A stretch of 64,000 nucleotides of DNA from a virus (IMGVR_UViG_3300021387_000661:192001-256000); one strand, 5' to 3'. Numbered from the stretch's first letter, positions 23,891-40,039 are shown. Numbers and translations are program-made. Notes: generated by a model not told the origin, from the letters alone.

Positions 23891-24226
23891 ATGAAGAAGA
23901 TTATATTTATACTTATTTCACTTTTATGTCTGTGCTCTTGTACTCATAACTATAAATGTGTTGTGAAATATGAGATATCTTATCCAGATACATCCTGGGT
24001 AAATGTTTATGAATTTGATGGTGTTAAGGAGGCATTTGCAAAGGTGTATACAGCATCAATATATAAAACCTTATTTGTGTATCCGAATGGACATACAAAT
24101 ATAGGAAGATATGAAATTGCAACTACCCCAGAAGGTAACTCAAAAATAACCATACTTGATTATAAGATGTATAAGTATGGTATAGATATTCCAAAAAAGA
24201 AAAGTAATGAAGAGAGAAGATTTTAA
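23891..24226 (+). CDS. Putative lipoprotein
   Basis: MKKIIFILISLLCLCSC. Confidence 0.6.
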   Translation: MKKIIFILISLLCLCSCTHNYKCVVKYEISYPDTSWVNVYEFDGVKEAFAKVYTASIYKTLFVYPNGHTNIGRYEIATTPEGNSKITILDYKMYKYGIDIPKKKSNEERRF

Positions 24227-25625
24227 GGAGATAACAAAATACATTGGAAGTATCATTAAGGGTACTTCCTTTGATGGTCATGTCTATACTGTAGGCGGAT
24301 CAGTTCGTGATTTTTATATGGGTAATGACATCAAGGACATTGACCTGGTTATTGACTTTCCTCACGGTGGTGTGGATTTTGCCAATTGGTGTAAGGAACA
24401 GGGATACACCAAAACTGTGGTCATATATGAAACATATGGTACTGCAATGTTCAAGTTCAAGCAGTATCCTGATGAGGAAATTGAATGTGTGATGACAAGG
24501 GGTGAGAAGTATCTTGATAAGGATTCAAGAAACCCTGTGACTGCATTTGCAGATATCAATGAAGATACAATCAGAAGAGACCTCACCATCAATGCCCTTT
24601 ATTATAACTGTTCTACTGGAGAGATTCTTGATTTAGTGGGTGGTCAGGAAGACATAAAGAATCACATCATCAGAACTACCAATACTGACCCTGATGTGGT
24701 GTTTGATGATGATCCGCTGCGAATCCTTCGTATCGTAAGATTTGCTACAAGATATGGATGGGAGATTGAGAAAAAGACATACAAGTCTATGAAGAAGTAT
24801 GTCAAGAGACTCAGGATCATCACCAAGGAAAGAATCCAGGCGGAGTTCAACAAGATTCTGATGTCTGAAAATGCAGTAATGGGTATCAATATGCTCCATG
24901 ATATTGGTGCAATGACATTTATTGTTCCTGAATTTGAGAAGTGTTATGGCCTCAAGCAGAATGCTTATCATTTTGGTGATGTTGCTGAACACACCCTTGC
25001 TGTCCTTGACTATCACTGTAAACATTTTGATGCAGATTTGACTGAAAGACTTGCTTGTTTCCTTCATGATATTGGAAAGACTGCAACCAGGACTGTAAAG
25101 GATGGAAAGGTTCATTTCTATGATCATGAGTATGTGGGTGCAGTAATGATTGATGACATTCTCAGGGCACTGAAGTATGACAATAACACTATCAAGGAAG
25201 TTCAGTTTCTCATCAGAAACCATATGAGGACTAAGCAGACTGGTGATGGTGCAAAGTATATCAAGGATAAGACTCTCAACAAACTCCTTTATGAGTGCGA
25301 GACTTTTGAGAGGTTCAAGTCTCTTATGAGAATTATAGAGTGTGACAATGAGGCACATGCAAAGGATTGCTGCATTCACAACCAGTATGAAGGACTGGTC
25401 AAGAGAGTGGAGTCTGATGAGAACCATATGAAGATGTTTAGTTACAAACTCCCTATCACTGGTGAGGACATTATGGAAGTCCTTGACATCAAACCAGGAC
25501 CGATCATTGCTGAAATCAACAAAAGACTTCTCAACCAGGCATTTATGGATCCTGGAATCACAAGGGGAAGATGTATCCAACTTCTTCCAGGTATCAAGAA
25601 ACAAGCAGAACAAGTTGTAAAATAG
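24207..25625 (+). CDS. cca: CCA tRNA nucleotidyltransferase with HD domain
   Basis: VGGSVRD, DIDL, RRDLTINA, DDPLRILR, ERI, HDIGK. Confidence 0.9.
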   Translation: MKREDFKEITKYIGSIIKGTSFDGHVYTVGGSVRDFYMGNDIKDIDLVIDFPHGGVDFANWCKEQGYTKTVVIYETYGTAMFKFKQYPDEEIECVMTRGEKYLDKDSRNPVTAFADINEDTIRRDLTINALYYNCSTGEILDLVGGQEDIKNHIIRTTNTDPDVVFDDDPLRILRIVRFATRYGWEIEKKTYKSMKKYVKRLRIITKERIQAEFNKILMSENAVMGINMLHDIGAMTFIVPEFEKCYGLKQNAYHFGDVAEHTLAVLDYHCKHFDADLTERLACFLHDIGKTATRTVKDGKVHFYDHEYVGAVMIDDILRALKYDNNTIKEVQFLIRNHMRTKQTGDGAKYIKDKTLNKLLYECETFERFKSLMRIIECDNEAHAKDCCIHNQYEGLVKRVESDENHMKMFSYKLPITGEDIMEVLDIKPGPIIAEINKRLLNQAFMDPGITRGRCIQLLPGIKKQAEQVVK

Positions 25626-28305: not shown

Positions 28306-28852
28306 ATTCCGGTCCAAGAAGTATGGTGTGATTAAAGGAATTGCATCTGTCAATTCTATGTACTATCAGATTGGAATGTATACTGTAAGGGTATCAGACC
28401 ATATGAAGTACAATGAATCAGCAGTAAAAGAAAGTGATTACTTTTTCATCATCCAACCAAATGACACATATATCTTCATTACTAATCCAAAGTATAATAA
28501 GGATGGTAAATTATATATGAAGATTGTGACTTATGAGGAAGCAAAAGAGTTTATCAGGACATATGATGAACAGACTGCAATATTTCTCAAGATGACAGAC
28601 TGGTATATTCCTGAAAACTGGAATAGGAAAATCAATGACAAAGATAAACTCTCCTGGGATGAATTCAACAAGACATATATGAAGAATATGTCAAATGACC
28701 AGAAGATGGGTGTTGTGAACAGGATTGAATCTCTTGTCTTTGGTAACCCCAAGAAAGGAGATTTGAATACCAAACTTCCTGGTGCAATTGAAGCATATAA
28801 CAATATGACATCTGCCCAGTATAATGCTCTTATTAAAAAAATGGAGGGTTAA
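28280..28852 (+). CDS. Hypothetical protein
   Basis: ORF track; VRVSDH motif. Confidence 0.7.
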   Translation: MDKLINYIEFRSKKYGVIKGIASVNSMYYQIGMYTVRVSDHMKYNESAVKESDYFFIIQPNDTYIFITNPKYNKDGKLYMKIVTYEEAKEFIRTYDEQTAIFLKMTDWYIPENWNRKINDKDKLSWDEFNKTYMKNMSNDQKMGVVNRIESLVFGNPKKGDLNTKLPGAIEAYNNMTSAQYNALIKKMEG

Positions 28853-28856
28853 TAAT

Positions 28857-29030
28857 ATGTGTATTTGTGATAAACTACGATCTGGTGAAGTAAAAAGAAT
28901 TGAACTTGACTATGACAATTATACTTCCCTTTTGATGGATTATGGACAAATCTGGGCAAATGGTGAGGGTGAAGCATATGTTGATATAACATATTGCCCT
29001 TTCTGTGGAAAGAAATTTGAGAAAAAATAA
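28857..29030 (+). CDS. Small zinc-ribbon protein
   Basis: CxC...YCPFCGKK. Confidence 0.6.
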   Translation: MCICDKLRSGEVKRIELDYDNYTSLLMDYGQIWANGEGEAYVDITYCPFCGKKFEKK

Positions 29031-29187
29031 TTTTCAGATTTTTTTTGTTATATTTAGTTTGTGTAAGATATACACATAAATATAATGTAAGCTGGAAATA
29101 AAAATCCACAGGATACTATTTGGATTCATCAATGTGAGATAATAAAGACAGTTTACACAAAGTAATACAAATTTAACTTATATAGTT

Positions 29188-29733
29188 ATGAACAAAATTC
29201 TTGTTGTCGTCGACATGCAGAACGACTTTCTGACTGGCTCTCTCGCCAATGAATCTGCTGTAAATGTTATCCCTAATATCAAGAGGGAAATTGAAAGTGG
29301 TAAGTACAACCACATTATCTTCACAAGAGACACACACACTGAAAGGTATTTGGAAACCCAGGAAGGTAAACGTCTTCCTGTGACTCACTGTATTGCAGGG
29401 TCAAAGGGTTGGAATGTGTGTGATGAACTCCTCAATTCCAATTTTGGTATCATCGAACCTATGTACCTTAACAAACCTACATTTGGTTACAATGACTGGT
29501 ATGACTTTGTTACCCATAACCTTGTGGCAGATGGTGATGAATCTGAATTCACCTTCACAGGTACCTGCACTGACATCTGTGTTGTAAGTAATGCCCTTGC
29601 TGTCAAGGCTACATTCCCTGAAGCACAGGTAAGGTGTATTGCTGACTGCTGTGCTCCACTCTTTGGAGACCCTAAACGACAGGAGTCTGCACTTACTGTT
29701 ATGGAGTCTTGCCAGGTTGATGTGATCAGATAA
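29188..29733 (+). CDS. pncA: Nicotinamidase / isochorismatase family
   Basis: VVDMQNDF, DTH, HC, K, GTCTDICV catalytic motifs. Confidence 0.85.
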   Translation: MNKILVVVDMQNDFLTGSLANESAVNVIPNIKREIESGKYNHIIFTRDTHTERYLETQEGKRLPVTHCIAGSKGWNVCDELLNSNFGIIEPMYLNKPTFGYNDWYDFVTHNLVADGDESEFTFTGTCTDICVVSNALAVKATFPEAQVRCIADCCAPLFGDPKRQESALTVMESCQVDVIR

Positions 29734-29735
29734 TT

Positions 29736-30002
29736 ATGATTCTCCTTTATATCATCATTTCATTTACCAATGTGGTACTCCATATTTTTCGGAGTATCCT
29801 GGTGATTAAATCCAGTAAGTTATCCGCTTCTTTCTGGAACTGTATCTGCTATACTTTTAGTGCAGTAGTTGTAAAGTTCATTGCAGAAGTTGACCTTTGG
29901 ATTGCAATCACTGTACAGGCTGCCACCAACTTTATTGGTTGTTATGTCGGTATGTTGGTTTATGAGTGGTGGGAGAAATATACAAAGAAATCCCAAAATT
30001 GA
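29736..30002 (+). CDS. Small membrane protein
   Basis: Three hydrophobic helices. Confidence 0.65.
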   Translation: MILLYIIISFTNVVLHIFRSILVIKSSKLSASFWNCICYTFSAVVVKFIAEVDLWIAITVQAATNFIGCYVGMLVYEWWEKYTKKSQN

Positions 30003-30003
30003 T

Positions 30004-30927
30004 ATGAGAACAATTCAAAAAAATTCATTAGAAATCTTCAAAACAAATATCTATATACCAACAGACATTGGTCTGGTGTCTAATAATGCCTATCTGTCTG
30101 TGGTAGCAACTAATAAGTGTAACAGGAACTGTCCATACTGTATCAATGGTGACACTGACCATACCCTGTCCATTCCTGTCAGGAAAATGACAAAGAATGT
30201 AAGTGAACTGGTTGACAGGTATGGTGTCAAAGAAGCAATCATTCTTGGTGGTGAACCAACCTTACATCCTGATATTTGTAATATCATTCATGGTTTGAAG
30301 TATGCAGGTATTCAGATTGTAAGACTTACCACCAATGGTATTGCCCTTACTGACCAACTCTTGAAAGATATGGTAAATTATGGATTGTATGGTCTGAACC
30401 TGTCCTTTCATAATGAAGACTTCATCTCCTATGAGAGACTTTCTCAGATTTATATGCTTTGCAAAGAACTGGGAATCAAACTCAGAATCAACACCAACAT
30501 CTGGAGAGGAAACCATGACTCCCTTGATTCTTTCCTGAATTTTTATGGGACTATTGTTGACAAGTGTGATGAAGTCCGTGTATCTAATATCATTCCAAAG
30601 GATACTTTTTCTGTTAATCCAAAGAATGATGAAAAGGCTGCACAAATGATTCTTCCAGATGAAGAATATCATAAGTTCTTCCAGGATCTGTGTGACTATT
30701 ACAGTAAGGATATGACATTAATTGAGAACAAGGATACCCTTGGATTTGTCAGGTATATTCTGATTCCTACCAAATGTCCAATCATTGTGAACTGGAACAT
30801 TGGATCCAAAGTTGCTGAACAGGTCTGCGAAAATGATATTGCAAACAGGAAAATCAACACCTTCAAGTGTTTGGTCTCTGGAAATATCAGTCTTTCCTGG
30901 AATGAAGGTAACACTTTTATCAAATAA
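30004..30927 (+). CDS. Radical SAM protein
   Basis: CNRNCPYC, GGEPTL, TTNG; start re-placed at 30004. Confidence 0.9.
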   Translation: MRTIQKNSLEIFKTNIYIPTDIGLVSNNAYLSVVATNKCNRNCPYCINGDTDHTLSIPVRKMTKNVSELVDRYGVKEAIILGGEPTLHPDICNIIHGLKYAGIQIVRLTTNGIALTDQLLKDMVNYGLYGLNLSFHNEDFISYERLSQIYMLCKELGIKLRINTNIWRGNHDSLDSFLNFYGTIVDKCDEVRVSNIIPKDTFSVNPKNDEKAAQMILPDEEYHKFFQDLCDYYSKDMTLIENKDTLGFVRYILIPTKCPIIVNWNIGSKVAEQVCENDIANRKINTFKCLVSGNISLSWNEGNTFIK

Positions 30928-30968
30928 ATTTGGTATTCTTTTGAAAAAACATTATATTTGTAACAGAT

Positions 30969-31796
30969 ATGATAAAGATTAATGATATTGAAGTGAATGT
31001 TGGACACTTCCCTGATGGGACACAGTGTATCAAGTTTCCCGTAGACGCATTATGGTCAGGACTTAATGATATGCCTATTCAGATTTCTTGGTATTATGAC
31101 TCTGATGAAGAACTCTTTACTCTTGCCTGTGTGATGGACTGGGTTCATCGCAGGCGTGGTTCAAAGAGAATCATCAAACTGAATATGCCTTATGTTCCAA
31201 ATGCCAGGATGGATCGCATTAAGAATGTTAATGAAAACTTCTCTCTTAAGGTTTTTGCCAACTTTATCAACTCACTTGGGTTTGATACTGTCAAGGTCTA
31301 TAATGTTCACTCCAATGTAAGTGAGGCACTCATCAACAATGTCTACAATGAAATGCCCAACAGAGATGTGAATTACTGTATTCTTAATTATAACCCTGAT
31401 GTTATTTTCTTCCCTGATGAGGGTGCTTGTAAGAGATATGCAGACCTTGATTCAGTAAAAGAATCTGGTCTCCCTGTTACCTTTGGTATCAAGAAACGGG
31501 AATGGAATACAGGAAAGATTCTTGGTCTTGATGTTGTATCTGACACAGACCTTACAGGAAAGAAGGTTCTTATTGTTGATGACATCTGTTCTGCCGGCGG
31601 GACATTTAAGTTCTCTGCAATGAAACTCAAGGAACTTGGTGCATCTGATGTTGCTCTCTATGTCTCCCATTGTGAAGACAATATCCAGAATGGTGACCTC
31701 CTGAAGACTGACCTTGTGTCAAAGATTTACACCACTAACAGTATTCTTCACATTCATCATCCAAAAATTGAAATTATTTCTTATTTCAGAAACTAA
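30969..31796 (+). CDS. Ribose-phosphate pyrophosphokinase-like (Adps/NARP1-type candidate)
   Basis: FPDG, PYVPNARMDR, PDEGA, IVDDICSAGGTF. Confidence 0.88.
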   Translation: MIKINDIEVNVGHFPDGTQCIKFPVDALWSGLNDMPIQISWYYDSDEELFTLACVMDWVHRRRGSKRIIKLNMPYVPNARMDRIKNVNENFSLKVFANFINSLGFDTVKVYNVHSNVSEALINNVYNEMPNRDVNYCILNYNPDVIFFPDEGACKRYADLDSVKESGLPVTFGIKKREWNTGKILGLDVVSDTDLTGKKVLIVDDICSAGGTFKFSAMKLKELGASDVALYVSHCEDNIQNGDLLKTDLVSKIYTTNSILHIHHPKIEIISYFRN

Positions 31797-31829
31797 TCAT
31801 TTTATACAATTAAAAATCTTATATAGGTT

Positions 31830-33323
31830 ATGATTAATACATTAGCAATTCTTTTATGTGACACTTATAAGACTTGTCACAATCGTATGTACCCTAAAAA
31901 CCTCAAGAAACTTACTTCTTATTGGGTACCTCGTAAGTCAATGTTCGAGAAACCTGAAAACCAGAAGATGGTCTGGTTTGGTATGCAGGCATTCATCCAG
32001 GAATGGCTCATTGACTACTTCCAGAAGAACTTCTTTGACCTCCCTCTCAATAGGGTTATGAAGGAATACAAGTTCACTATGAATATCCAGATTGGTGAAG
32101 GAAATTATGATGTTGAACCAATTGAAAAACTCCACACCCTGGGTTATCTTCCTTTGGAAATCAATGCACTTCCTGAAGGTTCACTAGTGAATATGGGTGT
32201 TCCTTGTATTGAAATTACAAATACAGTTGATGGGTTTGCTTGGTTAGTTCAGTGGATTGAATGTATCCTTCAGTCTGAACTCTGGAAAACCTCCAACCAT
32301 GCTACAATTGGTCACATGTACTACAAACTGGCCAAGTACTGGTATGACAAGACTGTTGATGATGGTGTCGACCCGCGAAACGCATTCGCAGACTTTGGTA
32401 TGAGGGGTATGAGTTGTATGAATGAGGCTGTCCGCTGTTCCGCTGCCTGGTTACTCTCATCCAACAAGACCAGTACCATTGCTGCCATCCCTTATCTGGA
32501 TGAGTACTATGATGCGGACTGTTCCTTCAACCATATAGGTATTGGTGCAGTCTCCACTGAACACTCTGTAATGGGTGCCAACTTTGCTCTGGATGGAGAT
32601 GAGAGAACCTTTGTCAAAAGACTCCTCACTGAACTCTATCCTAACTCCAGTTTCTCTATGGTGTCTGATACCTATGACTACTGGAATATGGTGGAGAACA
32701 TCATCCCTTCACTCAAGAAGGAAATCCTGGAACATAAGGGTAAACTCCTTATCCGTCCTGACTCTGGTGACCAGTATGAGACCACTGTTGAAACCATTCA
32801 GAAACTCTGGGATACCTTTGGTGGAACAGTCAATACCAAGGGTTACAAAGTCCTTGATTCCCATATTGGTGTCATCCTTGGTGATGGATGTACTCTCAAT
32901 GTCCTTCGTAAGATCTGGAAGGAACTGGATAGAAGGGGATTTGCTGCCAACAATGCCATCTTTGGTGTAGGTGCTTTCTGCTTCACCGCAATCTTTGAGG
33001 GTGACAAGATGATTGTAAACACCAGGGACACATTTGGTTGTGCTTGTAAAGCAACCTATGGTGTATTTGGTGACAAGGAACTCAAAATCTATAAGGATCC
33101 AAAGACTGACACCTCCCATCTCAAGAAGTCTCATAAGGGACTGGTCTTTGTGGAGAAGGTGAATGGTGAATACATCTACAAGGATGATATGCTCCAGGCA
33201 GAATATGATGAGTATGCAAAGACTCACACATCTGCAATGAGGACTGTCTTCAAGGATGGTAAGATGCATAACCGTGAGACCTTCACCACCATCCGTGAGC
33301 GTCTTGCAAATGAAAAGGATTAA
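31830..33323 (+). CDS. Nicotinamide phosphoribosyltransferase-like (Namat/NadV family)
   Basis: DTYKTCH, DFGMRG, TEHSVM, SMVSDTYD, IRPDSGD, RDTFG..KAT, KDPKTD. Confidence 0.9.
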   Translation: MINTLAILLCDTYKTCHNRMYPKNLKKLTSYWVPRKSMFEKPENQKMVWFGMQAFIQEWLIDYFQKNFFDLPLNRVMKEYKFTMNIQIGEGNYDVEPIEKLHTLGYLPLEINALPEGSLVNMGVPCIEITNTVDGFAWLVQWIECILQSELWKTSNHATIGHMYYKLAKYWYDKTVDDGVDPRNAFADFGMRGMSCMNEAVRCSAAWLLSSNKTSTIAAIPYLDEYYDADCSFNHIGIGAVSTEHSVMGANFALDGDERTFVKRLLTELYPNSSFSMVSDTYDYWNMVENIIPSLKKEILEHKGKLLIRPDSGDQYETTVETIQKLWDTFGGTVNTKGYKVLDSHIGVILGDGCTLNVLRKIWKELDRRGFAANNAIFGVGAFCFTAIFEGDKMIVNTRDTFGCACKATYGVFGDKELKIYKDPKTDTSHLKKSHKGLVFVEKVNGEYIYKDDMLQAEYDEYAKTHTSAMRTVFKDGKMHNRETFTTIRERLANEKD

Positions 33324-33326
33324 ATT

Positions 33327-33869
33327 ATGAATGACCGGAAACAAATTGACATTTACAAGGCCATCTTAAGACTTGATGGTATTGATGAACCATTCAGTGA
33401 ATTTGGACCAAATCATCCAAAGATTGGTGACTTTGTATCCCCAAGTATATATTTCTCCAGTAACTTCACTTATAAGTTGGAGAAACCAGGTTCAAGTAAT
33501 CTCACAAGAGATGAAGTGAAATCTTCTTACTGGGAATGTGTTGGAATCAGACATACTGAATATCATATGTTTATGAAGTTCAGGTCTGTTGATAAAATCA
33601 ATGGAAGAAGGAGATTCCTCACATATAGAGACCCTTGGAAATTCACAGCAGAGATTGTTGATATGCCAGAAAAGGCAAAACTCATCATCAGGTATAAAAA
33701 TGGGGAGTTCACCCTTCTTGAACTGTTGGAAATCTTCAAGGAAAAAGGATATTCTTCAAGAATCCATTTCAAGTCTATTCTGTTTGATATTTCTGGTGAT
33801 GAATATCTTCAGGCAATGACAGAACTCCTTGAAGAAAATTGGAAAGATATGCAAAATAAAAAGTATTAG
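33327..33869 (+). CDS. Hypothetical protein
   Basis: ORF track. Confidence 0.65.
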   Translation: MNDRKQIDIYKAILRLDGIDEPFSEFGPNHPKIGDFVSPSIYFSSNFTYKLEKPGSSNLTRDEVKSSYWECVGIRHTEYHMFMKFRSVDKINGRRRFLTYRDPWKFTAEIVDMPEKAKLIIRYKNGEFTLLELLEIFKEKGYSSRIHFKSILFDISGDEYLQAMTELLEENWKDMQNKKY

Positions 33870-33872
33870 GTT

Positions 33873-34373
33873 ATGATAAAAGAAGTAGATGGAAACCTTT
33901 TGACCTACCCTGGTCTCAAGGTTATTGCACACCAGGTCAATGCACTTGCTGTAATGGGAGCAGGTATTGCTAAACAAATCAAGGCAAGATGGCCAGAGGT
34001 ATTCAAAGAGTATTATGATTACTGTAAGTCATTCAGTGATGCTCATAACCTCCTCGGAAAATGTCAGGTAGTAAAGACTGATGACGGGAAGTACATTGCC
34101 AATCTCTTTGGTGAGTATTCTTTCTGCGAAAGTATCGCACCGTATGAAGATGGTGGAAAACCCAGGCATACTGATTATGATGCATTGAAAGAATGTCTTC
34201 ACAGACTCCATACCTGGATGGTCCTGAATGACATCAAGATTGGGGGTGTACCATTTAGACTTGGATCAGGCCTGGCTGGCGGTAACTGGGATGGTGTAGT
34301 CTATCCAATGATTAAGAATGAATTTGAGGAAGATGAGGACATCACTTTATACATTGTAAAATATAATGGATAG
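33873..34373 (+). CDS. Macrodomain (ADP-ribose binding/hydrolase) protein
   Basis: GNLL, HQVN...MGAGIA, GSGLAGGNW. Confidence 0.88.
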   Translation: MIKEVDGNLLTYPGLKVIAHQVNALAVMGAGIAKQIKARWPEVFKEYYDYCKSFSDAHNLLGKCQVVKTDDGKYIANLFGEYSFCESIAPYEDGGKPRHTDYDALKECLHRLHTWMVLNDIKIGGVPFRLGSGLAGGNWDGVVYPMIKNEFEEDEDITLYIVKYNG

Positions 34374-34375
34374 TT

Positions 34376-34783
34376 ATGGAATGTAATTTGAAATCTCCAT
34401 TTAAGGAGGCATTTGAAAGTGGTGACTCTATTGACTACAAGTTGGTACCAGGTGCAAAGAAGACGGATCATGATGTAGTTAAGGAGATGGGTTATAAAAT
34501 ACAGATGAACTCTGATTGTTCATTTACTGCATCTGGTCTTCCTGGTTTTAGTCTGTCCAGTTATGGAGACTGGGGTACATTCTTTGTTGACTGGGGTACT
34601 TATACTGAAAAGAAACTTTTCCTTGATATGTGTAATGAAGGAATCATCACACCTTGGAGGGTAAGAAAGTATGTGAGAGAAGGAAAGAATATTGTACCTT
34701 ATGACTATGATGAGAGGGGATGGACAAAGCACAGTGAAGAACTTGGAAAATGGGTATCAACTGAATCCCCTTATACAAAATAA
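34376..34783 (+). CDS. Hypothetical protein
   Basis: ORF track. Confidence 0.65.
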   Translation: MECNLKSPFKEAFESGDSIDYKLVPGAKKTDHDVVKEMGYKIQMNSDCSFTASGLPGFSLSSYGDWGTFFVDWGTYTEKKLFLDMCNEGIITPWRVRKYVREGKNIVPYDYDERGWTKHSEELGKWVSTESPYTK

Positions 34784-34793
34784 GTAAACTGAT

Positions 34794-35552
34794 ATGAAAA
34801 GAGAATATACTTTTAATGTAGAACAAGTAACCAATGAATGTATCCAGTGGATCAGGAATTGGTTTGAGAAGAACGGTCCTGGATGTAATGCCATTATCGG
34901 TATTTCAGGTGGTAAGGATTCTACCATTGTGGCAAAGCTCTGTGTGGAGGCGCTTGGTGCTGACAGGGTGATTGGTGTTATGATGCCTAATGGAATTCAA
35001 AAAGACATTTCTGATTCAATCAAAGTTTGTGAATTTCTCGGTATTAAAAACTATACTATCAATATTGAGAATTCTGTAAATTCAATCCTCAAACAGATGG
35101 CTGAATCAGGTATTGAAATCACAGAACAGACAAAGACAAATCTTCCTGCAAGAATTAGGATGTCTACACTTTATGCAGTTAGTCAGTCAAATGTAGGTAG
35201 GGTTTCAAACAACTGCAACAGAAGTGAAAACTATGTTTCATATGAGACTAAATATGGTGACGGTGCGGGAGATTTCGCACCTATTGCAAACCTTACTGTA
35301 AGGGAACTTCTGAAAATTGGAGATTATCTTGGATTACCATATGAATTGGTACATAAGACCCCAATTGATGGACTCAATATAAACCCAGATGGTTCATATG
35401 TTACAGATGAGCAGGGACTTGGTTTCTCATATGCAGAACTTGATGATTATCTTCTTTATGGGATTAAACCAGAGTCAAAGAAGTTGGAAAAAATTGAGAG
35501 AATGCATCAGAGGGGGGTTGCAAAAAATCGGATGCTGAGTTTTGAATTTTAG
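34794..35552 (+). CDS. nadE: NH3-dependent NAD+ synthetase
   Basis: GISGGKDS, NLPARIRM, TKYGDGAGD, DEQGLGFSY. Confidence 0.93.
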   Translation: MKREYTFNVEQVTNECIQWIRNWFEKNGPGCNAIIGISGGKDSTIVAKLCVEALGADRVIGVMMPNGIQKDISDSIKVCEFLGIKNYTINIENSVNSILKQMAESGIEITEQTKTNLPARIRMSTLYAVSQSNVGRVSNNCNRSENYVSYETKYGDGAGDFAPIANLTVRELLKIGDYLGLPYELVHKTPIDGLNINPDGSYVTDEQGLGFSYAELDDYLLYGIKPESKKLEKIERMHQRGVAKNRMLSFEF

Positions 35553-35565
35553 AAAAGAGTGGTTG

Positions 35566-36807
35566 TTAATCAACCACTCTTTTTAATATATCATCTTTAT
35601 TTTCAATAACTTCATATGGATAATCAATTTTAAGATTTGAAAAATATATTAAAGTAACATTATGTTCATCACACAGTTTCTTTTTAAGTTTATCATTATT
35701 CCATATGTATTCAAAAGATGATTCACCACCAAAAAAATCACTATTTTCAAAATGTTGTCTGCCTTGACATTCTATTGCTATATTTTTTGATGGAATATAG
35801 AAATCCAAAGATTTAAGTCCTAACCAGTCAAACTTTTTTTGCTCTTCAAATATAATCTCATTATCTATTAAAAGTCTTTTTATTTCAAGTTCAAGATGAC
35901 TTTGGTTGCATTTGGGACACCCTCTTAAATGATGTGTAAAATTATAAAAAGTACAAGTTCTCCACTCCTGATGACATTTCAAACATTCTAATATAAGATA
36001 TGTTGATGATCCATACCATTCACATTCATTACCATTTTTATCACAATATCCTTTAAACTTATAATCTCTTTTTTCACAAAGTTCCAAAATAAGAGGTAAA
36101 CATTCTTCTTCTTTTCTTATATGGTTTTTACCATTTTGTTTGTTTGAACAATTTGGACATTTTGATTTTGAATAAACTGTATTAAGTGATTTTCTCCATA
36201 TATGTCCACAAATATTACATTTTAATAAAGCATATGTTCCCATTTCCCATTTAACATTGTGTTGATAATCATCTTGGTATTCCAAAATATCCCAGTTATT
36301 TTTTTCACACAATGACTTAAAATGATTGAACCTATTTTCTTTAAAATAACTTTTACAATTTGGACATTTTCTACCTCTTATGAAATTATCATATGAACAA
36401 GTATACCAAACATTACCACAATTATTGCATCTAATTGCAAGGTATGTATTAGCAACACCATTCCAAGTTGATGCATTATGTTCTTTATCACAAAAATATA
36501 AAAATGTGTAATTAAGTTCTGTACAAATTTTCAATATATTTTTCCTTGCAGATTCTTCACTCACCCTTTTACAATTAGGGCATTTTCCTCCTTGCATAAA
36601 ACGATTGTAAGTTGTTGATGTCCAAATTTTATTACACTTTGGGCAGTATAATTTTAAGTATGTCTGGTTATTCTTGTATTCACATTCATTACCATCCTTA
36701 TCACAGAAAGATAAGAAATCATATCCTCTCTCTTCACATAAGATTTTTACTCTTTTGATGACCTCATCATTTGTGAGATTGTAACAGGTTTCAAATTTTT
36801 GACTCAT
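35566..36807 (-). CDS. Free-standing homing-endonuclease-like protein (zinc-ribbon repeats plus Vsr/DUF559-like PD-(D/E)xK domain)
   Basis: Four CxxC...CPxC repeats; C-terminal LDFYIPSKNIAIECQGRQHF; opposite strand to its neighbours. Confidence 0.75.
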   Translation of the reverse strand: MSQKFETCYNLTNDEVIKRVKILCEERGYDFLSFCDKDGNECEYKNNQTYLKLYCPKCNKIWTSTTYNRFMQGGKCPNCKRVSEESARKNILKICTELNYTFLYFCDKEHNASTWNGVANTYLAIRCNNCGNVWYTCSYDNFIRGRKCPNCKSYFKENRFNHFKSLCEKNNWDILEYQDDYQHNVKWEMGTYALLKCNICGHIWRKSLNTVYSKSKCPNCSNKQNGKNHIRKEEECLPLILELCEKRDYKFKGYCDKNGNECEWYGSSTYLILECLKCHQEWRTCTFYNFTHHLRGCPKCNQSHLELEIKRLLIDNEIIFEEQKKFDWLGLKSLDFYIPSKNIAIECQGRQHFENSDFFGGESSFEYIWNNDKLKKKLCDEHNVTLIYFSNLKIDYPYEVIENKDDILKRVVD

Positions 36808-36948
36808 AATTTTATATCATCTCATCTACATTAAAGTAAAATAGATTAAAAGAAATTTGGTTATACTATATTTATGTAAATTTATTTTGATTTTATTTGA
36901 TTTTTTCATAAAAAATTGTTATCTTTGTATTAGGAAAATAATAGTATT

Positions 36949-37305
36949 ATGATAGTTAAGGTAAATAAAGTGCAGTACAATCCGGAGACCAATGGTTATC
37001 TGGATGATCTTCATTATGATTTAGATATCCCGGATGATAAAATCATCAAGGGTATCACAACCACGACTCCAACTTACTGGTATGCATTGATAGATGGGAA
37101 TCTCTTCAAGTCTGACCAGAGGAAAGGACTTAAAAATATCTATTTCTCTTCCAAGGATGAACTGGAAGATGCTCTCTCCCAGGCACTTTATTGGAGACAG
37201 AAGTTGGTACCTGGTATTGGGTGTGGTATAGGTTACGATTGCGAAGACTTCTATCACAAACTGAAACAGACTCATAATATTGAATTCAAAAAAGTACAGT
37301 TCTAA
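36949..37305 (+). CDS. Hypothetical protein
   Basis: ORF track. Confidence 0.65.
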   Translation: MIVKVNKVQYNPETNGYLDDLHYDLDIPDDKIIKGITTTTPTYWYALIDGNLFKSDQRKGLKNIYFSSKDELEDALSQALYWRQKLVPGIGCGIGYDCEDFYHKLKQTHNIEFKKVQF

Positions 37306-37308
37306 TAT

Positions 37309-39195
37309 ATGGATAAGAGAGAACTTTATGATAAGGCAAAGGAAGCTTATTACAATGGTGGAGAACCCATTATGACTGACCAGGAGTTTGACCAGTTGGA
37401 GGAAGAATTGGGATTAACTAACCAGGGTTATGTTGGTACTCATCACCAGAAGTCCTATACAGTGAAACATCCATTCATTATGGGTAGTCTCTCCAAGGTA
37501 CAAATCAAGGAAGATGATAACCATAATGTGAATTGGTCAGGATTTCAGGAGAAGGTGATGACCTATCTCCGTAAGTCCAATGGATATGGGAAAAATAAAT
37601 GGTTCTATGAGGTGACACCCAAATATGACGGGTGTTCCTGGGAAGCTGTCATTGACCATAAGGGAAATCTTGTGTCTGTATCCAGTAGAGGTGATGGACA
37701 GTTTGGTAAAGATATCAAGGTCTGGTTTGAGAATGAGTGGAAGACCAACTATGAACCTTATGTGATGGACTACTACAGGTCTGCACTGGATGAACAATCT
37801 TATTTCTTCCTTAAATACTTGGTAATCAGGGGAGAATGCTTGATAAAGAAGTCTGTCTTTATGGACAAATACTCACAGGAATTCACTCTTCCCAGAAGTT
37901 TTGTTTCCGGTGTCCTTGGTCAGGACTGGGAAGATTCTGACAAGCAGAAGGAGATGAGGGATGACCTGTCCTGGGTTGCATATGATTTCAGGACTGTTTA
38001 TGAAAATGGTACCATCATTGAAGAAGGATATACCAAGTTTGATGAACTCTCAAAATACACCCTGGGGAACAGACCTGACTTCATCATTACAGGTAACAGT
38101 TATAACTTCAACCTTGACCACCTTTATGGTATCTTCGAGAAGGTCAGGCAGAACAGTGAGTTTGCTCTTGATGGATTTGTGGTGAAGCCTGGCGCTCATT
38201 TCAGACTTTTGGATGGTGGAAGGACAAGACAGGAAGACTGTGTTGCCATCAAGTACCTCCCAGAGATTGTGGATGCTGAACTCATTGATGTTGAGTGGAA
38301 TGTGGGAAAGACTGGTGAGTATTATCCAACAGGTATCCTTGCTGATGTCATCCTTGGTGGAAAGAATGTGAACAGGGTCAGCCTCTCCAACTATGGAAAG
38401 ATTGTTGAGGACAAGATTGGAATTGGATCCCACCTGAAAATCTCACTTGCGGGAGACATCATACCATTCGTTTTTCAGGTTGTCTCTGGTGGTGAGCATC
38501 CAGTTCCTGTTCCTGAAGATTCTTATGTGGATGGTGTACATCTGATGAAGACTATGAGTGAGAAGGACAAGATGTACATCAGGTTCATCAACTCTGTCAA
38601 TGTCATCAAACCAGATGGAATTGGCGAGAAGGTGGCAACCAAGTTGTTTGAAATCTTCCCCACAGACAACATCCTGGACTTTATGATCAATGACAAGTGG
38701 AAGGAAAGTCTTGATGACAGTAAGTCTTCACAAAACATCATCAACTCTCTCAATGAAAGGAAAAAGACTCTTTCTATGACAAATCTCATCCAGTCAATGG
38801 GTTATGAGAACTGTGGAGAAAAGAACAGTGCCTGGTTGGCAGATAAGCTGTGTGGTCTAAACCCTGACACAAAAGGTATCCCCACAACCATCATTGAACT
38901 CTCTGAAAACTATGAGTTCAACAGCAAGGTCACCAACTATATGCTGGCAATGGATGTGAAACCTGTCAAGAAGGAAGACACATCTGGAAAGACACCTGTC
39001 ATCCTCACTGGTTCTCCAAAGGAATGTGGGTACAATACCAAAGCAGATTTCCTTGCGAAACATCCGCAGTTCGTAGAGACGACAAAATGGAATGAATGCA
39101 AGACTCTCATAACAGATGATTTAGACTCCACCAGTTCAAAAATGCAGAAGGCAAAGAAACTGGGAATTGAAATCAAAACATATTTGGATTTCTAA
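37309..39195 (+). CDS. ligA: NAD+-dependent DNA ligase
   Basis: YY...TDQEFD domain Ia, KYDG, SRGDG, RGE, DGFVVK, AIKY, C-terminal BRCT. Confidence 0.92.
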   Translation: MDKRELYDKAKEAYYNGGEPIMTDQEFDQLEEELGLTNQGYVGTHHQKSYTVKHPFIMGSLSKVQIKEDDNHNVNWSGFQEKVMTYLRKSNGYGKNKWFYEVTPKYDGCSWEAVIDHKGNLVSVSSRGDGQFGKDIKVWFENEWKTNYEPYVMDYYRSALDEQSYFFLKYLVIRGECLIKKSVFMDKYSQEFTLPRSFVSGVLGQDWEDSDKQKEMRDDLSWVAYDFRTVYENGTIIEEGYTKFDELSKYTLGNRPDFIITGNSYNFNLDHLYGIFEKVRQNSEFALDGFVVKPGAHFRLLDGGRTRQEDCVAIKYLPEIVDAELIDVEWNVGKTGEYYPTGILADVILGGKNVNRVSLSNYGKIVEDKIGIGSHLKISLAGDIIPFVFQVVSGGEHPVPVPEDSYVDGVHLMKTMSEKDKMYIRFINSVNVIKPDGIGEKVATKLFEIFPTDNILDFMINDKWKESLDDSKSSQNIINSLNERKKTLSMTNLIQSMGYENCGEKNSAWLADKLCGLNPDTKGIPTTIIELSENYEFNSKVTNYMLAMDVKPVKKEDTSGKTPVILTGSPKECGYNTKADFLAKHPQFVETTKWNECKTLITDDLDSTSSKMQKAKKLGIEIKTYLDF

Positions 39196-39601: not shown

Positions 39602-40039
39602 ATGGAAAAGATTAAAAAGGTAACAGCAGCAATAGTTATCATTGACAAAAATGGAAACATCCTTGGTTGTCATGCCACCGGGAAACCAGATTATACTGGA
39701 TATGATTTTCCAAAAGGTTGTGTTGAACCAGGAGAATCAGATATTACTACTGCAATCAGAGAACTAAAAGAAGAGACTGGACTATTTGTCTCTGAATCTG
39801 ATTTGATTGATGCAGGTGTTCATCCTCATAACAAAGAGAAGGACATTCACCTTTTCATTTACAGGGTCAATGTGTTACCAAATACAACAACTCTGAAATG
39901 TACATCCTATTTTGAACTCCCTGATGGTAGGAAGTTACCAGAGATGAATGGTTTCAAAATCATCTCAAAATCAGAAAGGGATATGTTCAACAAAGTATTA
40001 CAGAATAAGTTTGAAATTATAGATTCATTCAACAAGTAA
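39602..40039 (+). CDS. Nudix hydrolase
   Basis: GCVEPGESDITTAIRELKEETGL Nudix box. Confidence 0.92.
   Translation: MEKIKKVTAAIVIIDKNGNILGCHATGKPDYTGYDFPKGCVEPGESDITTAIRELKEETGLFVSESDLIDAGVHPHNKEKDIHLFIYRVNVLPNTTTLKCTSYFELPDGRKLPEMNGFKIISKSERDMFNKVLQNKFEIIDSFNK

Follow-up and report, generated by a model that had tools for sequence, protein, structure and literature searches.

Depletion of nicotinamide adenine dinucleotide (NAD+) is among the commonest antiphage strategies of bacteria, and the phage systems NARP1, NARP2 and NARP3 have all been described within the last three years. NARP1, known from phages SPbetaL1, Bas63, FADO and ICP1, consists of Adps and Namat (Osterman et al., bioRxiv 10.1101/2024.02.11.579819; structures in PMC12774641 and PMC13586617). 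NARP1-AP, found in Vibrio phage Gary, is NARP1 with an added macrodomain phosphatase, Adpp (bioRxiv 10.64898/2026.01.28.702374). NARP2, represented by Vibrio phage KVP40, pairs Nampt with a bifunctional Nmnat/Nudix enzyme, uses phosphoribosyl pyrophosphate (PRPP) and needs Nmnat. Here we describe a block of nine open reading frames (ORFs) at positions 29188-35552 of a 64,000-nucleotide stretch (hereafter the window) that corresponds to bases 192001-256000 of the 344,746-bp IMG/VR phage record IMGVR_UViG_3300021387_000661, an estimated 94% complete genome of which ~6% may be missing. The block is probably a nicotinate-type (deamidated) version of NARP1, that is, a counter-defence module predicted to rebuild NAD+ from ADP-ribose (ADPR) and nicotinate.

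In the proposed route, a host NADase would split NAD+ into ADPR and nicotinamide. A macrodomain enzyme would convert ADPR-1''-phosphate to ADPR where needed, and an Adps-like enzyme would use ATP to turn ADPR into ADP-ribose pyrophosphate (ADPR-PP). A PncA-like enzyme would convert nicotinamide to nicotinate. A Namat-subfamily transferase, in whose pocket the Asp that binds the amide has been lost and residue 242 has become Ser, would then join nicotinate and ADPR-PP directly into nicotinate adenine dinucleotide (NaAD, or deamido-NAD), which NadE would convert to NAD+ with the expenditure of ATP.

The nine ORFs form one tight block on the + strand, with intergenic gaps of 1-41 nt. An earlier note on this DNA had named a PncA, a PRS-like protein (PRS, phosphoribosyl pyrophosphate synthetase), an NAMPT-like protein, a macrodomain and a NadE here, and family profile searches recovered each of the five on that strand where the note had put them. 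The PRS-like and NAMPT-like genes, which it had called adjacent, lie at 30969-31796 and 31830-33323, just 33 nt apart, and the NAD-dependent ligase and Nudix protein that it reported near the block are also present. Four further ORFs of the block, encoding 88-aa, radical-SAM, 180-aa and 135-aa proteins, were absent from that account.

The transferase (31830-33323, 497 aa) matches phrog_448 at 519 bits and NF006629 at 432 bits. Its best solved match is SPbetaL1 Namat (Protein Data Bank (PDB) entries 9w5x and 9w5w, 356.7 bits), and human NAMPT scores 162 bits; by these comparisons the protein is Namat-like, not NAMPT-like. A residue map against SPbetaL1 Namat shows that the window transferase retains the catalytic His245, Arg192, Arg309, Asp311 and the TRD motif at 398-400. 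It carries Ser215 in place of Asp215 (codon 32472-32474) and Ser242 in place of Ala242 (codon 32553-32555). The remaining nicotinamide-pocket residues and the core are kept (the phospho-His, Arg192, Arg306, Asp308, Phe189, Asp13 and Tyr15). SPbetaL1 Asp215 is equivalent to human NAMPT Asp219, a position at which nicotinate phosphoribosyltransferases carry Ser.

In the SPbetaL1 structure nicotinamide is contacted by Phe189, Arg192, Asp215, Ala242, Arg306, Asp13' and Tyr15', and it is Asp215 that provides the hydrogen bond to the amide (PMC12774641). For the human enzyme, a passage of PMC7096376 terms Asp219 a substrate-specificity determinant, and an entry in PMC4919578 lists D219S as a substrate-affinity switch and D219A as a loss of activity, both citing Khan et al. 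2006. The two substitutions in the window transferase thus fall at contact positions of the pyridine pocket, one of them the residue that binds the amide.

These substitutions are shared by many relatives. We retrieved the 150 nearest representatives (at 50% identity) from 1.84 billion protein clusters and aligned them with six reference sequences, for 156 rows in total. Positions 215 and 242 co-vary across this alignment: Asp and Ala occur together in ~100 of the 156 rows, and Ser242 is present in 49 of the 50 rows that lack Asp215 (the remaining one, an Ala215 row, has Gly). The non-Asp clade comprises ~48 clusters at 50% identity, with Ser, Ala or Val at residue 215 and Asp in none of the 48 representatives.

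We next compared gene neighbourhoods, with flanks of up to 10 kb, at 216 loci: 80 IMG/VR loci near the window transferase, 52 near SPbetaL1 Namat, 80 near an Ala-type gut-phage homologue, and four annotated GenBank phage loci (L001, L002, L083 and L084). Each locus was scored for residues 215 and 242 and for neighbouring genes, and co-occurrence counts were restricted to loci with at least 4 kb on each side. PncA-like, Adps-like and NadE genes are all present at 157 of the 158 full-flank loci with Ser or Ala215 and Ser242, and the single exception lacks only the PncA-like gene. By contrast, PncA or NadE is found at none of the 27 full-flank loci with Asp or Glu215 and Ala242, a set that includes SPbetaL1 and FADO.

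The genes occur in at least three orders. A bare four-gene operon, PncA-Adps-Namat-NadE, is present at L207, L217, L220 and L134, the order PncA-Namat-NadE-Adps at L004 and L005, and Adps-Namat-Macro-NadE-PncA at L001 and L129. Phage Phass-1 also holds the module, and its depositors annotated the genes as nicotinamidase, PRS and NAMPT. Ser-type modules occur in genomes and metagenome-assembled genomes of gut Lachnospiraceae and other Clostridia. NadE is rare in GenBank phages: 48 records encode it, whereas homologues of Namat or Nampt are present in 2,025.

These counts bear on the possibility that the block is an ordinary, nicotinamide-using NARP1 in which PncA and NadE only happen to lie nearby, each an auxiliary metabolic gene in its own right that feeds host salvage. 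NadE is known in phages without Namat, such as cyanophages and Bacillus phage G, and the closest characterised relative of the transferase is Namat itself; both facts would suit such an arrangement. PncA, however, would consume the nicotinamide that an ordinary NARP1 requires, and the amide-binding Asp is missing throughout the clade (its loss in D219A is listed as abolishing NAMPT activity in the PMC4919578 entry). Two independent genes are also hard to reconcile with their presence at 157 of 158 non-Asp loci against 0 of 27 Asp/Glu-type loci, or with the recurrence of the bare four-gene operon in several lineages. We consider this explanation very unlikely.

The PncA-like protein (29188-29733, 181 aa, isochorismatase fold; PF00857, 68.9 bits) has the catalytic triad Asp9, Lys96 and Cys131 and the metal site Asp48, His50 and His67, all of which are invariant in 17 module homologues. 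The top solved-structure matches of its family profile are nicotinamidases (1ilw, 82.6 bits; 2h0r, 67 bits). The NadE gene (34794-35552, 252 aa) scores 165.3 bits against PF02540 (cut-off 21) and 163 bits against TIGR00552 (cut-off 63.65). Its product is a single-domain protein without a glutaminase domain, and solved NadE structures match it near-equally at 110-117 bits. On these matches it is clearly assigned as an ammonia-type NAD synthetase.

Classical salvage would require an adenylyltransferase. We found no match to the Nmnat/NadD/NadR/NadM fold (PF01467) anywhere in the 344,746-bp record, in a search that matched all 14 control genomes, and a tblastn search of this genome with NadM-like proteins from relatives was also negative. 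A PncB-type nicotinate phosphoribosyltransferase was not found in the search with TIGR01513 (21.9 bits, cut-off 297), and the genome has no match to PnuC (PF04973). Nmnat is also missing from five further relatives, each at least 94% complete.

The earlier note had seen no Nmnat in the window and had named an Nmnat elsewhere in the genome as a finding that would undo its proposal; with PF01467 and tblastn both negative in this 94%-complete genome, no such gene came to light. Its argument that a transferase sharing a module with PncA must use nicotinate is supported by the Asp215Ser and Ala242Ser changes, by gene co-occurrence and by the absence of Nmnat, which together point to nicotinate as the probable substrate. 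The survey of four-gene co-occurrence that it called for gave the association described above, at 157 of 158 non-Asp loci versus PncA or NadE at 0 of 27 Asp/Glu-type loci.

Several observations implicate ADPR as the feedstock of the module. The Adps-like gene (30969-31796, 275 aa) matches phrog_619 at 236.6 bits and scores 96.9 bits against the PRS model TIGR01251, below its cut-off of 113. The validated Adps proteins of SPbetaL1 and FADO score 106 and 96.5 bits against the same model, and in five module-bearing Clostridia genomes the genuine Prs proteins score 160-191 bits and the module copies 79-106. In a tree rooted on Clostridia Prs, the module PRS-like proteins nest among canonical Adps on a branch with SH-aLRT support of 100.

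Adps catalysis involves a beta-hairpin Lys, an acceptor-site DD and a remodelled PP loop, as solved for the ICP1 enzyme (PMC13586617). The conserved motifs of the PRS-like proteins are FPDG, ARMDR, HS, FPDxGA, KxR and DDICSAGGTFKF. In the window protein IKKR, DDICSAGGTFKF, HS and FPDEGA align with the Adps sequences of SPbetaL1 and FADO. The comparison covers those two sequences because the solved structures of PMC13586617 were not among the matches of our PDB sequence search.

Neighbouring genes also appear to handle ADPR. The macrodomain protein (33873-34373, 166 aa) matches phrog_335, annotated as 'phosphatase', at 124.7 bits and PF01661 at 20 bits, below the cut-off of 22. In the PDB it matches BT1257 (46 bits) and yeast Poa1p (6lfu, 32 bits, E ~1e-6), the latter a phosphatase of ADPR-1''-phosphate. 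It is a probable ADPR-1''-phosphate phosphatase like Adpp of NARP1-AP. Of 177 non-Asp loci, 135 have a macro gene. A NADAR gene (PF08719, 97 bits; L007:11919-12332) lies between the macro gene and NadE in the most abundant Ser-type lineage, and at a second locus (L077:14709-15137) a NADAR gene lies upstream of NadE with other ORFs in between. The NADAR gene of L007 occupies the position that the 135-aa ORF, to which it is unrelated, has in the window.

The transferases themselves provide a further indication. Namat proteins carry the signature GSXphiXphiXphiTRD, and an adenine 'selectivity clamp' confers their preference for ADPR-PP (PMC12774641). Phass-1 and a second representative, P0017, combine the canonical clamp motif, including both aromatic residues, with the non-Asp pocket, PncA and NadE. 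A third, P0023, has the non-Asp pocket, PncA and NadE and a short clamp helix free of insertions, and lacks the first aromatic clamp residue. The existence of these short-helix forms indicates that the pocket change and the clamp change are separable. We checked the gene context of two short-helix non-Asp representatives, P0017 and P0023, and both adjoin PncA-like, Adps-like and NadE genes, one of them in bacterial surroundings beside a weak NrtR-like regulator; the contig of P0016 was too short and was left out. The placement of Adps, the ADPR-handling neighbours and the canonical clamp in Phass-1 and P0017 are thus three lines of comparison that favour ADPR as the likely feedstock still.

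Other results weigh against the nicotinate-type NARP1 proposed here. The most important concern the clamp of the window transferase. The signature reads GAFCFTAIFEGDKMIVNTRD, with Phe at position 3 and TRD kept. The clamp helix has Ala for Ser391 and an insertion of nine residues, which leaves Val opposite Tyr396; in the clamp loop Arg40 is replaced by Met38, followed by Phe. With an adenine clamp so altered, use of ADPR-PP is not assured, and the changed clamp is the main structural reason for caution on this point.

A second set of results concerns adenylyltransferases in relatives. Four of ten related genomes encode NadM-like Nmnat proteins that score ~60 bits against archaeal-type Nmnat models, below the cut-offs, and such genes lie within 10 of 177 non-Asp loci. 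Examples from relatives are L137 (G005:C1:64294-64842), L073:15034-15606, L138 and L140. At L077, the sole locus mapped, the NadM-like gene is directly downstream of NadE. We considered the NadM-like gene as a core part of the module and rejected this, as neither the window genome nor the majority of complete relatives encode it; where it does occur, we regard it as accessory. The Metis defence system cuts NAD+ at the pyrophosphate, and the added Nmnat could equally serve to re-join nicotinamide mononucleotide left by pyrophosphate-cutting defences such as Metis.

Both sets of results would also fit a booster of the Preiss-Handler pathway, in which the PRS-like enzyme makes PRPP, the transferase makes nicotinate mononucleotide, a host NadD or a NadM-like enzyme makes NaAD, and the phage NadE makes NAD+, with ADPR left unrecycled. 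The Ser-type clade has substitutions at the residues that make Namat prefer ADPR-PP, NadM-like genes accompany some loci and genomes as just described, and Namat itself keeps PRPP activity in vitro (PMC12774641). Against this, the PRS-like gene groups and scores with validated Adps, far under cellular Prs, and the macro/Adpp-like and NADAR genes can be explained only with ADPR as the starting material. Phass-1, P0017 and P0023 pair the non-Asp pocket, PncA and NadE with an insertion-free clamp helix. Finally, neither the window genome nor five other near-complete relatives have an adenylyltransferase, whereas 94% of NARP2 phages encode their own Nmnat. We regard a Preiss-Handler booster as unlikely.

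The PncA-like protein is a further point of caution, as it scores 21.9 bits against the NCBIfam PncA equivalog NF008623 and does not reach the cut-off of 174. Together with the variability of residue 215 (Ser, Ala or Val) in the clade and the unexplained radical-SAM gene and 135-aa ORF in the module, this leaves room for a pocket that takes another base and an isochorismatase-fold enzyme that acts on another amide, yielding a different pyridine dinucleotide or ADPR conjugate. NadE, however, is clearly an NAD synthetase, and the known substrates of that family are deamido forms. The metal site specific to nicotinamidases (Asp, His, His) does not vary, and conservation across the clade does not extend to the extra genes. 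A different product is therefore highly improbable in our judgement. For NadE itself, the scheme assumes a preference for NaAD over nicotinate mononucleotide.

The strength of the co-occurrence is also tempered by phylogeny. In trees, the non-Asp transferases, including the window protein, all lie on one side of a single branch, with support of 99 for the split from 102 Asp-type representatives. Repeated independent origins of the non-Asp pocket were considered and rejected, since no second split appears in the trees. PncA and NadE were thus recruited, and the pocket altered, a single time, and the co-occurrence count reflects long retention and not many independent events. More generally, each enzymatic step of the scheme is a prediction, and the joining of nicotinate to ADPR-PP most of all. 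With these points considered, we still favour the nicotinate-type NARP1 as the probable function of the block.

The remaining ORFs of the block are dispensable for the proposed pathway. A small hydrophobic ORF of 88 aa (29736-30002) has a weak holin-phrog match alone (24.8 bits) and no homologue at any related locus. The radical-SAM protein (30004-30927, 307 aa, with an in-frame ATG at 30004) has the cluster motif CNRNCPYC and matches PF04055 at 62.3 bits. Viperin structures 6b4c and 7n7i match its residues 36-253 at ~35 bits, and the NCBIfam viperin model gives 49 bits, far below cut-off; the protein thus appears weakly viperin/MoaA-like. The gene is 91% identical and in the same position at L003, the closest relative (whose transferase is 92% identical), and is absent from other modules.

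An orphan ORF of 180 aa (33327-33869) matches nothing in Pfam, PHROG, NCBIfam, the PDB or the Atlas and lacks homologues at 220 related loci, and its AlphaFold2 model is poor (pLDDT 36). The radical-SAM, 88-aa and 180-aa ORFs are insertions common to at most the closest relative, L003. The conserved ORF of 135 aa (34376-34783) recurs in NAD modules, with homologues at L003:12003-12410 (83% identity, same position) and at L131:7477-7971 (45%, adjacent to PncA in a distant Ala-type module). AlphaFold2 models the protein with confidence (pLDDT 90.2). Searches for a sequence family, PDB or Atlas match found none, and Foldseek returned nothing at E <=0.001. VIA-align matched triphosphate-tunnel enzymes with Z up to 5.5, within noise, and assignment as a NADAR protein was rejected on comparison.

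In several lineages homing endonucleases are found within or next to the NAD module. A homing endonuclease of HNH/CapR type (35566-36807, - strand; PF21817, PF14311 and phrog_559, 187.7 bits) flanks the block and stands outside the pathway, and a LAGLIDADG endonuclease lies in or next to an Ala-type module (L131:11559-12500). At another locus (L004:11552-12499) we identified a protein with a treble-clef zinc finger (DUF4379) and a DUF723 domain. Many Namat representatives reach 550-1100 aa and match in separate pieces, a pattern suggestive of inteins. Selfish elements seem to have a hot spot in this module. Some non-Asp transferases also have long C- or N-terminal extensions (646-649 aa at L076, L077, L125 and L126; 792 aa in P0023), and these may be fusions with neighbouring genes.

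Downstream of the endonuclease lie the NAD-dependent DNA ligase (37309-39195, + strand; PF03120, 56.6 bits; PF01653, 37.9 bits), an NAD+-consuming phage enzyme, and the Nudix protein (39602-40039, + strand). The latter is generic and MutT-like, with a best NCBIfam score of 38 bits, far under cut-offs, and we saw in it no feature specific for ADPR or NAD. Upstream of the block, at 24207-25625 (+ strand), is a tRNA nucleotidyltransferase of the CCA-adding enzyme/poly(A)-polymerase family with an HD domain. With megablast the block matched none of 50,697 phage records, so relatives there exist at the protein level only. Promoter- and terminator-like sites in 28700-37000 are not commoner than in shuffled sequence, and operon boundaries therefore cannot be drawn from them. 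On a bacterial-looking contig (L254), a gene with a weak NrtR winged-helix match (128-958) precedes the four-gene module. NrtR regulators respond to ADPR, and an NrtR-like regulator would fit an operon that recycles it.

If the proposed route is correct, it would represent a fourth route, in a large subfamily. Of the 150 nearest representatives, ~48 clusters (50% identity) belong to it, and gut-phage contigs with it number in the hundreds. It would provide a simple rule for annotating NARP1-like genes, with Asp215/Ala242 on one side and Ser or Ala215/Ser242 on the other, and it would mean that part of the cellular deamidated salvage pathway has been recruited into counter-defence in phages of gut Clostridia. 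It would also pose the question why selection should favour the more expensive route. One speculative answer, to which we give a slim chance, is that the detour is an arms-race adaptation: gut Clostridia hosts or their defences may strip nicotinamide too fast for an ordinary NARP1, or NaAD may form a protected pool, poorly cleaved by NADases, that NadE can draw on. Conflict over metabolites would then have a second layer beyond NAD+ depletion, with a new enzyme reaction besides.

A literature search linking NARP1 to PncA, nicotinamidase, NadE or NaAD found nothing, subscription journals being mostly outside its coverage, and neither isochorismatase nor NAD synthase is named in the supplements to the NARP1-AP preprint. 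The implied reaction, nicotinate and ADPR-PP to NaAD, is one that we found in no paper.

The module most resembles NARP1 in having an Adps-clade PRS homologue beside a Namat-clade transferase with the core His245, Arg192, Arg309, Asp311 and TRD conserved, and in being phage-borne. By analogy, it plausibly counters NAD+-depleting defences as NARP1 does. It differs in that the window transferase has Ser215, Ser242 and a nine-residue clamp insertion where NARP1 has Asp215 and Ala242, in that a nicotinamidase and NadE accompany the window-type module and none of the 27 sampled Asp/Glu-type NARP1 loci, and in that the implied product is NaAD, not NAD+. The Poa1p-like macrodomain gene, two genes from the transferase, recalls NARP1-AP; here the macrodomain, with its predicted ADPR-1''-phosphate activity, is added to a nicotinate-type core. 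As in NARP2, an NAMPT-family transferase would restore NAD+, but the window genome lacks Nmnat, has an Adps-like gene, and encodes a transferase much closer to Namat. NARP3 is built from a PnuC-like transporter and an NadR-like enzyme, whereas the window genome has no match to PF04973 or PF01467.

The pocket change also has an engineered counterpart in human NAMPT D219S, in which the same Asp is changed to Ser with a switch of preference listed in passages of PMC4919578 and PMC7096376. That variant is engineered and uses PRPP, whereas the window change is natural, fixed in a clade and coupled to Ala242Ser. Finally, the module shares with the Preiss-Handler pathway (PncA, PncB, NadD and NadE) a nicotinamidase at the start, an NAD synthetase at the end and NaAD as the predicted intermediate. 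It differs in having no PncB-type nicotinate phosphoribosyltransferase or NadD; in place of both middle steps, a single enzyme of Namat type would act on the product of Adps.

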